Made by a program: the position numbers and the translations under genes
Shown: positions 2,365 through 6,176 of the stretch, piece after piece
How the letters are laid out: each line of letters starts with the position of its first letter
Position numbering within the stretch: position 1 is the first letter of the stretch
NCBI GenBank assembly: GCA_977030845.1
Contig: OZ365115.1
Span: 2,418,001 to 2,482,000 of the forward strand
Source: Fimbriosthenelais zetlandica
Taxonomy: Eukaryota
Direction: 5' to 3'
DNA length: 64,000 nucleotides
Notes under the pieces: generated by a model
Seen by the model: the letters and a program-made list of their open reading frames with translations, nothing else
What the model was told of the DNA's origin: nothing
The model's database searches: none

Positions 2365-3945
2365 TTAAGGCTTGGTAAGGCTTTGTATAATAGTTGACTT
2401 CTTCGTTTTGAGGCCCAAGAAGGAAACCACGCTGTTAGCTGAGCTATCATCTGAACTGTCAGTTGAACTGTCAGTTGAACTGTCAGCTGAACTTCCAGCA
2501 CTATCTGAACTCAGATCAAAGTATTTATTGTTACAATAGTCAGTATCGCAGCATGTTATTGCCCGATAAGCTCCCGATTGGACGTATGTTGTGTCTTCCA
2601 CACAATCCCCCTTGCAAGAACGAGTCACTCCCCAGATGAGTCCTGCCTTCAATAGTTCTGTCTGCAATTTTATAATAATTATAAGCCTACTTAATAAATA
2701 TTGACGTAGATCTGAGCGAGGCTTGATACCAGGTCGTATATTTTCCAGCAAGCCCGCGACTATTCCTGATACCAGGTCAAATACAGGCTCTGATATCAAG
2801 CGAGGTCTGTTCTGGATTTATTCTACCCCATCTATAAAATATCATAAAAAGTATGACAAATAACAATTATATTTCTGTTATGGTGGGAATGATAAGTCAT
2901 TAACCATCTCCAAATAGGGGTGAGAGCCCCCTCAATGGATCCACCCCACAGTGTGACATTGTGTAAATTTAAAATGGTAAATTTGAGCCCATTGGCATTG
3001 TACCTCATCATTGCTATGCTATGCATTCATATACCTATAGGGCCTACATATTATAGTTATCCGCATTGGTACAGTGTATAAGAAACTCATAGATTTAGGC
3101 TGGCCAAAATGCTATTTATTCATGGTACATTTAGTTTAGAACAGTTTTTTTGCAGTGATGGTTCGTTCCTATATTATTTGAGTAAATCATCACAATGAAC
3201 TTACCTCACACATGCCATCACAAGTCTCAGTGTCAGCCCCAGCTATAACAGTTGGATCTTCGTCGTTACAATTGTAATCTGTGACTGAGTTACAGTGGTA
3301 ACATTCCAGCGCCGAGACTGGAAGAGAATAATAGATATAGCTTGATTTAGCTAGTATAAAATATAGCATATAATTTACGCTAAATTATTTTCTCGGGAAT
3401 TGAGCCGCAAAGTATTTAACTGCAACTGACACCATTAGAACATATAACATTTTACTTCCTGGTTAACATAATGTATGTCATTCTCACTCAGGCGTCTCAT
3501 CCTGATCTTACCATCTCTCACCCCCACTCATCCTCACCCAGCACCTATAACATTGTCCCTCAATCCACCACTCACAATCCAAGCTTAGTTAATAATTACA
3601 CTATTAATCCTAGTGTAGTCATATAATTACACTTATACTAACAAATTCAATTCTAACAAACTTAATCCGCGCCGAGGAAAAACTAAACAGAGATAGGCAG
3701 AATACCCTGGACTAGCCACATACATTGTGCCCCGTGCATGACCGTTAAAACTCGCTGTATTCCTAAATTCCTAACTTTACCAACATTATAGAAATAAGAA
3801 GAACAAAACTAACCACTATTAACAAAATGATTTTGATAACAGCTTTTCCAACTTTATAGAAATAAGCAGAACAAAACTAACCACTCGAAGCGAAGATGGC
3901 CAGTAGAACCAGAACAAATCTGATGGAGATAGCACTCTTATACAT
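2365..3945 (-). CDS. Ly6/uPAR (three-finger, LU-domain) protein, copy A, 157 aa, 3 coding exons (3945-3882, 3317-3205, 2661-2365); lacks a hydrophobic C-terminal anchor
   Basis: Exon 1 encodes a signal peptide (MYKSAISIRFVLVLLAIFASS) and ends at a phase-1 GT donor (G|GTTAGT). Exon 2 (TTCCAG| ... GAG|GTAAGT) encodes VSALECYHCNSVTDYNCNDEDPTVIAGADTETCDGMCE. Exon 3 (TTGCAG|) encodes TELLKAG...RSCKGDC...ITCCDTDYCNN, then a Ser/Asp stalk and stop. Phases are compatible (64+113+297 = 474 nt). There are 10 Cys with the LECYxC start and CCxxDxCN end typical of LU domains, and a minus-strand AATAAA lies near 2184-2189. Confidence 0.9.
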
Positions 3946-4013
3946 CCTGAGAGTGTTTTTACTCTGGTCAAATAAAGGTAATCTAACGTAGGGTGGTAAG
4001 GTAGGAAGGTAAT

Positions 4014-4099
4014 TGGTGCACGTCCTCCTGCTAACTCTACTCCGCTACTAGTGACGTCACATACATCTCACACATACCCCCATCTCCCGGTCACATGAC
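4014..4099 (-). promoter_or_regulatory. Conserved upstream block of Ly6 copy A (paralogous block at about 6232-6330) with CRE and E-box (CATGTG) motifs
   Basis: CGTCCTCCTGCTAACTCTACTCCGCTACTAGTGACGTCACATACATCTCACACATA...GGTCACATGAC is near-identical upstream of both paralogues. Copy A has TGACGTCA and copy B has TGGCGTCA; copy B has a second TCATGTGAC. Confidence 0.5.
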
Positions 4100-4797
4100 A
4101 GTCACTGTGGAGTCCCAGCTTTAGTTTTAAAGATTCAGTGATATTTAAAGTTGGATGTACTTGGGTCTGAATTGTTGACGTGGTCACTAAGACACTCGAC
4201 ATGGTCACTTGAGATGAACTAATATACATGATCCATCTACTTATGGATGAGTCTGAAATAAAGTACATAATAATAATAATGATCGCTCAGTAATAGTATT
4301 TGACCAACTTTGTTGAATCTGTTGTATTATCAGGTAATTATGACAACATACGAACCAGTACTGTCAAAGTTCTTTATTTGTTATTTCATATTATTACATT
4401 TGTTCTAGTTTATTATAATTGTTGCTTCTGTCGTGACTTAAAATAAGCGTAGCAGATTATAATTATATGTCTTGTTTTTTTAGCATAGATTAAAATAATA
4501 AATTCACTACCGGGTAGTATTTTTTTCAAACTTTGATCGCTCAGGTTGACATAATGTTTTTGAGTTGAAAACGGTGTTATTCATAATATTTGTAGCAAAT
4601 TAAAACTGTGTTAGAATTAGTAATTCTCCATATAATGACTTAATGCCGCAGGTTTGATTTACCGCGATTGGAAAAACAATCCTGCATGGAAATAAAGGTG
4701 AAGGAATTCATGGGTAAATCGTTCTCTACTGAACTGTTGGTACTGCATGGTGGCGTGGCATTTTAAATCTCTGTAAGGCTTTTATAAGAGTTCACTT

Positions 4798-6176
4798 CTA
4801 CTTTTTGAGACCAAAGAAGAGAGCCGCGGCAGATAGGGCATAGACAGCCACACTGGAGGCCACGATGTTAGCTGAACTGTCAGCTGAATCGTCAGCTGAA
4901 CTGCTAGCACTATCTGAACTCAGGTCGAAGTATTCATCGTTGCAATTTTCATTCTCGCAGCATATATCCCACCCTCCTAGGATGTTTGTTGTTTCTTCAC
5001 AATCCTCGTCGCAAGCGCGAGTCACTTCCGAAATCAATCCAGCCTTATGGAGACTTGTCTGAAATATATAATAATATATATTAAAATATATATATAATAT
5101 ATTTATCTGTGTGTGATAACAATCTCAAAGCGCAGACTAGGATCATACAGTGGCATAGGCTGGGGACAGGGGACAGGATAAGGTGGTAGATGATGGGGAC
5201 AGGGAACAGTAAGAGCCTATTATGGGGGACAGGTTTGGATTGGATTGAATGGGGTTTAACGAGGTATCATGTCGCAGGCACATGACATGATAACTCACCC
5301 AGTCACATTATACTGACACCGGGTTGACCAGTCCTAGCACTGTCCTCTTTTTGCTGAGTGCCAAGCGAGGGAGCTACTAGTCCCATTTTTTCAGTCTTTG
5401 GTATGACCCGGCCGCGGTTCGAACCGGCGACCTTCCACACACGGGGCGGACACTCTAACCACTACACCACCGCGGGAGGGGAGGGGGCAGGGATGGTTGA
5501 TTCCACCGTGATTTGAGTAACTCATATACTCACCCTACATTTGCCTTCACACGTCTCGGTGGGGGAGAGTGATATTGAACCCTCTGTGTTACAAGTGTGG
5601 TCTGTCAGTGAATTACAGTCGTAGCATCTCAGGCCAGACACTGTAGGAGAATAATACATATAGTTGTTTACTGGTAAACGTTGTCGATGTATACATGTAC
5701 TGTATAGGAGCAATATAACAGCTCGTGTGTCATTTGCAGGTGTCATGAAATTAGCCGTTGAAGCCCGTTTCATAGCCAATATTAGTCATAGATTTATCAA
5801 CTGCATGATAATGGTCTTTTTGAAAAAGGCTTCCAGTCAAGGCCGTACACTGGGGATAATATTATGGCCCTCGCAGTTAGCCTATAATAATCATCTCCAT
5901 CTCCACCGTTTCCATAATATAATATAATTATAAATTGACACATTAATTAGATTATAGATACCGCTGCTTTGCTTCAGATCGATTATTATATCTTTTTTTT
6001 TACAAAAGCAAAGTAAAGGACAATCAGTTTTCCCGAGTATAGGCGGCTATTAACAAAATGATTTTGATAACAGCTTTACCAACTTTATAGAAATAAGCAG
6101 AACAAAACTAACCATTTGAAGCGAAGATGGCCAGCAGGACCAGAACAAAGCTGGTGTAAAGAACAATCTTGTTCAT
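4798..6176 (-). CDS. Ly6/uPAR (three-finger, LU-domain) protein, copy B, 143 aa, 3 coding exons (6176-6113, 5640-5534, 5058-4798); predicted GPI- or C-terminally anchored
   Basis: Exon 1 is MNKIVLYTSFVLVLLAIFASN (G|GTTAGT). Exon 2 (CTACAG| ... AGG|GTGAGT) is VSGLRCYDCNSLTDHTCNTEGSISLSPTETCEGKCR. Exon 3 (TTTCAG|) is TSLHKAG...RACDEDC...DICCENENCN, followed by a Ser/Asp stalk and the hydrophobic tail IVASSVAVYALSAAALFFGLKK*. Total 64+107+261 = 432 nt, 10 Cys, same intron positions and phases as copy A. Confidence 0.92.
5258..5474 (-). mobile_element. tRNA-headed SINE in Ly6-B intron 2 (MetaSINE-like core); truncated second copy at about 34603-34740
   Basis: The minus strand reads CGCGGTGGTGTAGTGGTTAGAG...GGTTCGAACC (A and B boxes), then GGGTCATACCAAAGACTGAAAAAATGG...GGTGTCAGTATAATGTGACTGGG. 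That core resembles the widespread invertebrate Meta-domain SINEs (family assignment from memory, not searched). Confidence 0.75.

Follow-up and report, generated by a model that had tools for sequence, protein, structure and literature searches.

Loss of a predicted membrane-anchor core from one copy in a Ly6/three-finger gene cluster of the annelid Fimbriosthenelais zetlandica

A 64,000-nucleotide (nt) stretch of the Fimbriosthenelais zetlandica genome (assembly GCA_977030845.1, contig OZ365115.1, positions 2,418,001 to 2,482,000; hereafter the window, whose own numbering is used below unless a contig is named) carries two neighboring minus-strand genes of the Ly6/three-finger (LU) family, A and B. 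Copy A lacks 36 nt that encode the hydrophobic core of the predicted anchor in B, and it has lost the stop codon that follows. A third close copy, C, was found by genome search about 140 kb off on the opposite strand (C25:2562552-2564831) and retains the TAG and the 12 anchor residues as in B. On balance, A is best read as an intact single-domain LU gene minus its anchor core and stop, the product of which would likely be secreted and soluble; B and C are predicted to be membrane-bound. The original prediction, made from the letters of A and B, described a tandem soluble-versus-anchored pair. The LU identity of the genes and the placement of the loss in A survive, but that picture was incomplete: the LU domain of A is nearer to C than to B, and the two genes belong to a LU cluster that extends well beyond them.

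Anatomy and family membership

Both genes have three exons and ten cysteines when their exons are read by coordinates. Splicing gives an open frame of 157 amino acids for A and 143 for B, and all four introns are GT-AG, intron 1 in phase 1 and intron 2 in phase 0. In A, exon 1 (3882..3945) carries the ATG, at 3945, and encodes the greater part of a predicted signal peptide in 21 codons plus 1 nt before the phase-1 intron; exon 2 (3205..3317) encodes the N-terminal half of the LU domain with Cys 1-5, and exon 3 (2365..2661) encodes Cys 6-10 with the CN, a Ser/Asp stalk, a shortened tail, and a read-through to TAA. The matching parts of B are exon 1 (6113..6176; ATG at 6176 and predicted signal peptide), exon 2 (5534..5640; Cys 1-5), and exon 3 (4798..5058; Cys 6-10, CN, Ser/Asp stalk, hydrophobic tail, TAG). 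The N-terminus of A reaches a best 11-residue hydropathy of 2.97 (by hydropathy window only), and the exon reading confirms the earlier statement that A keeps ten cysteines and canonical splice sites; the signal peptide, which that statement also named, is a prediction.

The cysteines of A fall at residues 27, 30, 38, 54, 58, 75, 79, 96, 97, and 102, and those of B and C are spaced alike. In all three proteins ten cysteines lie within 60-90 residues and a CC stands close to the end, the pattern that defines LU domains in the available text of PMC6600238, and in all three Asn directly follows Cys 10 (CN). The gene plan is likewise that of LU genes, with a signal exon, two domain exons, and the anchor signal in exon 3. 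Against Pfam, exon 3 of A scores 23.9 bits for Toxin_TOLIP (PF00087; cut-off 21.2), and exon 3 of the anchored copy C also passes, slightly better than A. Exon 2 of A and B resembles QVR (PF17064) at E about 0.005 (0.0046 for A), under the cut-off, and exon 3 of B alone matched no LU family in Pfam. A profile built from the exon-3 cores of A, B, and C found 27 sequences in PDB, with PSCA (E 4.2e-5), SLURP1 (E 2.8e-4), and Lynx1 ahead of any toxin. Cysteine pattern, CN, exon plan, and the Pfam and PDB matches together support the assignment to the LU family first proposed for A and B.

Searches for orthologues returned little. Exon 3 of A recovered none among 161 candidates at E<=10; out of 1.84 billion representatives the exon-3 profile matched two at E<=0.001, neither orthologous (one a repetitive non-LU frame, one a multi-LU protein), and one match among 1391 longer candidates, at E 1.1 and not an orthologue. 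The protein P0122 has 1103 residues and nine matched stretches, and in it LU-like repeats are linked by acidic stretches.

Addition of a glycosylphosphatidylinositol (GPI) anchor needs a long hydrophobic C-terminal end. The tails of B and C comprise 24-25 uncharged residues with best 15-mers, judged by hydropathy only, of 2.13 and 2.45 and a candidate S-S-A omega site, which fits the omega+2 rule for GPI sites (available part of PMC2119539). The portions available from PMC8745461 and PMC10940682 give no minimal GPI tail length. Since B ends in KK, a single transmembrane helix instead of GPI is possible for it; B and C are predicted to be membrane-tethered either way. By hydropathy, A has the combination typical of secreted LU proteins, a signal peptide without a hydrophobic C-terminal signal (2.97 vs 0.85). 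It does not share their other mark, a chain that ends at the last disulfide loop, as 54 residues follow its CN.

The 36-nt deletion and the lost stop

The SAN codons and the LK codons, common to the copies, are separated by 33 nt in A but by 69 nt in both B and C, a net gap of 36 nt against both. The best placement of this gap lies 17-18 nt past the start of the GCTAAC anchor, with 5 mismatches; it puts the junction at 2421..2422 in A and makes the missing segment B 4819..4854. Placements at 11-19 nt have only 6 mismatches, which makes the breakpoints approximate but leaves the length at exactly 36 nt. The missing segment encodes 12 hydrophobic and small residues, all identical in C, where the DNA has two synonymous differences. 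The original prediction that A lacks the 36-bp hydrophobic core of B holds with that proviso on its ends.

The second change is in the stop codon: A has AAG (2401..2403) where B and C have the TAG stop. As had been proposed, the frame is extended, here by 12 more codons, to a TAA at 2367-2365, giving the C-terminus KTKKSTIIQSLTKP. The deletion is in frame, and up to the old stop every gain or loss of length in the coding sequence of A is a multiple of three. Five more A-specific base changes flank the gap; over 54 tail columns, private changes number 5 in A, 3 in B, and 4 in C. Rescue of A by another exon is unlikely because no GTRAG, GTTAG, or GTAWG donor was found downstream of its CN and because, within the 280 kb examined around the window, the 36 nt recur only in B (0 mismatches) and C (2 mismatches).

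A also has 24 nt extra of a 12-bp Ser/Asp repeat, and this gain hides the 36-nt gap in a default alignment. A MAFFT default alignment with a 12-nt gap only was rejected for its many mismatches, and a two-gap alignment of A with B (24-nt gain, 36-nt loss) was preferred at four of four gap penalties. The alignment given earlier for the two genes was correct about the loss but did not mention the gain.

The repeat itself forms the stalk. In A it spans 2432..2493 (5.2 copies of a 12-bp tandem unit, encoding Ser/Asp/Thr), 24 nt longer than the Ser/Asp array of B (4866..4903, 3.2 copies) and absent from C. The stalk that A and B have in common appears to be an expansion of the single SSAN unit of C, and in its expanded form it is part of the 54 residues that follow CN in A. 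Its DSS-like repeats are reminiscent of acidic phosphoproteins.

Copy C, the surrounding cluster, and the direction of the loss

A and B are not an isolated pair. The 280 kb around the window hold eight LU terminal exons, seven from among 11 regular-expression hits for the C-terminal LU motif and one from a profile search; the other four hits had no LU pattern upstream and were dropped as chance. Apart from A and B, six LU genes or terminal exons lie near the window, at C25:2407501-2408071 (minus strand), at 2532151, 2537622, 2545780, and 2551143 (plus strand), and at 2562552-2564831 (plus strand, copy C), all with hydrophobic tails. The profile-found exon at C25:2537622 has CK in place of CN. 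Across the cluster, seven of the eight terminal exons have a hydrophobic tail (best 15-mer 1.63-2.45), the exception being A, at 0.85. No tail-less sister copies of A were found in this interval.

The loss can be polarized to A because C keeps the same 12 residues and because seven of the eight terminal exons are tailed. On this sequence comparison, the anchor segment is shown to have been lost on the side of A. The earlier proposal that A derives from an anchored form by loss of the anchor, and is secreted, is thus sustained in its first part, with C and five further tailed neighbors giving the direction; secretion is only predicted.

A genome-wide survey gives a broader view, with counts that are lower bounds, as the searches score only the best candidates. 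The CC..CN motif was present at 24 of 34 loci examined, one of which was exon 2 of B and was dropped. Among the remaining 23, the best 11-mer is at least 1.67 in 19 and lower in four: A, L016, L019, and L048. L016 and L048 have a GTAAGT donor past CN and may splice onward; L019 has none.

Some of these loci invite attention of their own. L019 (C13:30817279-30817446, minus strand) is an LU terminal exon with a short polar tail of 17 residues and no donor-like site, possibly a second tail-less LU gene. L023 (C1:7536506) and L016 (C1:7553118) are neighboring QVR-like exons with long acidic tails, L023 running for 327 residues and ending in a short hydrophobic stretch. L049 and L051 (C37:1026021 and 1028996) are near-identical tandem LU exons 3 kb apart, both tailed.

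Mosaic history and selection

Judged by identity, the closest relative of the LU domain of A is C, not B. The exon 2 proteins of A and C are 76% identical, those of A and B 54%; at the DNA level A and C agree at 88% in exon 2, 96% in intron 2, and 81% in the exon-3 core. B and C, in turn, are 98.7% identical in upstream DNA and 92% in exon 1. A and B are not simply parent and child, because upstream DNA and exon 1 group B with C, exon 2, intron 2, and the core group A with C, and the stalk groups A with B. All three copies are likely mosaics of gene conversion.

Intron 2 of A (2662..3204) is probably one such conversion tract. The proportion of differing sites between A and C is 0.23 at synonymous exon positions (pS) vs 0.04 in intron 2 (Fisher p 8e-6). 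Positive selection had been considered as the cause of exons more diverged than an intron, and was rejected, synonymous sites being equally in excess; recent conversion of intron 2 is the simplest reading of the contrast. The ratio of nonsynonymous to synonymous divergence (dN/dS) is 0.60 for A-C over 86 codons, with a bootstrap range for pN-pS (pN being the nonsynonymous counterpart of pS) of -0.22 to +0.05; it is 0.41 for A-B and 0.46 for B-C. With B as outgroup, the 42 core differences between A and C divide into 7 on A, 18 on C, and 17 that are not polarized.

The likely fate of copy A

If A is a secreted, soluble paralogue, its signal peptide would bring it into the endoplasmic reticulum, where five disulfides would form, the pairs of the three-finger fold being 1-5, 2-3, 4-6, 7-8, and 9-10. 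No GPI would be attached, as the 8-residue apolar remnant SVVSFLGL followed by a basic end would not be a substrate, and the protein would leave the cell with its Ser/Asp stalk. For B and C, cleavage at a Ser close to SSAN would leave the protein tethered; alternatively, one helix would hold it. Within the animal, A could then serve as a diffusible version of anchored C or compete with it for an extracellular partner of the same kind, which is the weakest step of the scheme.

The state of the gene supports this reading. The ATG, the ten cysteines, four splice ends, the upstream block, and the AATAAA of A are intact, and dN/dS lies below 1 in three of three pairs. In a neutral-decay simulation the ATG, ten cysteines, open frame, and eight splice bases were retained together with probability 0.38 at 2%, 0.15 at 4%, and 0.02 at 8%, and the probability falls when indels are added. 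Other observations pull in the opposite direction. In the simulation, the probability that a gene out of use still seems intact at 2% drift is 0.13-0.38; the five private tail changes of A are no excess over those of B and C and do not fix the date of the loss; and the A-C ratio is not significantly below 1. The further private losses of A, namely, the stop codon and about 214 nt of 3' untranslated region (UTR), are as under relaxed selection, and gene conversion can refresh a dead copy. Hydropathy, moreover, stood in for GPI and signal-peptide predictors.

Much of this would also suit a redundant duplicate in early decay, a possible though less probable account, in which the deletion disabled A or came after its silencing. 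The lost stop, the longer repeat, and the shortened UTR would then reflect drift, and the core would be as yet unhit or refreshed from C. Several private lesions at the 3' end of A, an A-C ratio inseparable from 1, a probability of 0.13-0.64 of an intact look at 1-2% drift, and the evident A-C conversion in intron 2 (96%) are all in line with it, and birth-and-death is the known mode of such clusters (available text of PMC10421932). Against decay stand the retained cysteines, ATG, splice ends, upstream block, and AATAAA, coding length changes that keep the frame up to the old stop, and the small share of core differences that fall on A (only 7, vs 18 on C). A further account takes the deletion for a mistake of assembly or for an uncommon allele, or has A spliced to another anchor exon. 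There is a single assembly only, and the neighboring LU gene E, whose terminal exon is tailed, is found on the same strand 12.5 kb downstream. An in-frame gap flanked by five A-specific base changes is unlike an assembly slip, however, and with no donor-like site past CN and an AATAAA of its own for A, this account is improbable.

Two readings credit A with a more particular function. One, among the roles first suggested, has the secreted protein act as a toxin or antimicrobial, parallel in an invertebrate to the snake three-finger toxins, and it now looks very doubtful. A lesion of the same kind preceded those toxins (per the portion available of PMC10421932), exon 3 of A exceeds the Toxin_TOLIP cut-off, and the A-C exons (81-88%) are more diverged than intron 2 (96%). 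Yet anchored C does slightly better at that same cut-off, PDB ranks PSCA, SLURP1, and Lynx1 before any toxin, and the exon-intron contrast extends to synonymous sites, as expected of intron conversion rather than positive selection. The core of A is acidic (5 K/R vs 16 D/E), only one of the eight cluster exons is tail-less, and A has no tail-less sisters there. Rapid amino-acid change with expansion of tail-less copies, by which a three-finger toxin might be recognized, is not seen in A; a cationic toxin or antimicrobial is unlikely given the acidic core and the lack of any burst of change or of copies, and sequence searches found no close toxin relative. Somewhat less far-fetched, but still unlikely, is the view of A as a functional three-finger protein only recently set free in an annelid. 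It would then have begun, independently, the same passage from membrane to secretion that gave rise to SLURPs and snake toxins, with its anchored parents still next to it, and its new acidic Ser/Asp stalk would give it a role in mucus, tube, or matrix, or in receptor modulation at a distance.

Comparison with known secreted LU proteins

Loss of the anchor as a route to secreted LU proteins, part of the rationale of the original prediction, has published precedent: the text available from PMC10421932 calls loss of the anchor region in LY6 genes "relatively common" and convergent, and that from PMC6600238 counts 11 secreted human LU proteins. A resembles vertebrate secreted LY6/uPAR proteins (SLURP1/2, PATE, and the snake three-finger toxins) in having one LU domain, a gene of three exons, and an anchor region lost within a cluster. 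It differs in that the vertebrate secreted LU domain stops with the final disulfide loop (PMC6600238, same portion), whereas A keeps 54 residues past CN; A is also acidic and has no close sequence kinship with them. The proposed route to the toxins is a stop before the anchor region, whereas A shows an internal in-frame deletion plus stop loss.

Other comparisons are instructive. In medaka bouncer A/B, likewise a pair of paralogues, a working GPI signal is missing from one copy (PMC6600238, in the part available); bouncer is a fish egg protein, however, and its tail-less copy has an unpaired Cys and may misfold, unlike the clean ten-Cys pattern of A. Quiver/Sleepless (PF17064) and the Drosophila Ly6 clusters share tandem clustered single-LU genes with GPI-type tails, although A and B fall under the QVR cut-off. 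In PMC6600238 45 of 45 Drosophila genes are said to have a predicted GPI anchor, and our literature search found no account of tandem-duplicated secreted Ly6 genes with GPI loss in Drosophila. PMC13719153, in its available portion, reports secreted or anchored LU proteins across invertebrate genomes, with 272 in five annelid genomes, and its supplements may list tail-less annelid forms. The partly available literature on annelid Ly6/three-finger proteins yielded no account of anchor loss in annelid LU genes, and polarized anchor loss inside an invertebrate LU cluster appears less documented in such sources.

A is thus a fresh instance of an already published event; what sets it apart is the route, an internal in-frame deletion together with loss of the stop, and the 54-residue tail that it keeps, in which the Ser/Asp repeat is expanded. 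As anchor loss is published as common in the LY6 family, the finding will not surprise a specialist, and A may be dying. If A is expressed, it would offer a polarized natural experiment, a soluble LU protein sharing its cluster with an anchored sister, C, to which its exon 2 is 76% identical, and the effect of anchor loss on the choice of target would be directly testable. Annelid LU proteins have been counted but are functionally uncharacterized, as far as the available part of PMC13719153 goes.

Flanking and other features of the window

Upstream of A, a block at 4009..4099 (minus strand) is 89-92% identical to B and C and is likely a candidate promoter or 5' UTR; it contains the motif TGACGTCA in A vs TGACGCCA in B and C. 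The corresponding block of B (6220..6317, minus strand) is conserved at about 98-98.7% identity to C. Downstream, the AATAAA of A (2193..2198, minus strand) lies 167 nt past the stop, inside a block common to B and C. The 3' UTR segment missing from A, by blastn blocks, is B 4441..4654 (minus strand, about 214 nt), which is partly common to C. A bacterial promoter scan of the locus was set aside as irrelevant for an animal gene.

Intron 1 of A begins with a 43-nt duplication (3775-3885) that copies the donor region 68 nt downstream at 93%; use of this copy would lead to an in-frame stop. Intron 2 of B contains a young dispersed repeat (5261..5476, no strand assigned) with at least 37 matches listed elsewhere at 98-99%. 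An 88% copy of A-B intergenic DNA (about 4107-4190) lies at 889-977, with no exon relics found nearby.

Farther from the pair, the window includes a frame of 192 codons that contains a signal-like stretch and matches nothing in Pfam (12529-13107, plus strand), a single-frame UDP-glycosyltransferase (23604-25220, minus strand; PF00201), and a histamine-H2-like G-protein-coupled receptor (46071-47294, plus strand; PF00001). The best named matches of this receptor are from Capitella, Paralvinella, and Platynereis, which points to a polychaete annelid as the likely host. At 7063-7990, 348-nt inverted arms (93%) flank an 87-bp tandem repeat, resembling a miniature inverted-repeat transposable element. 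Ten copies of a 321-bp unit form a tandem array at 60214-63413, with diverged inverted relatives at 33378-33906 and 51368-51817.

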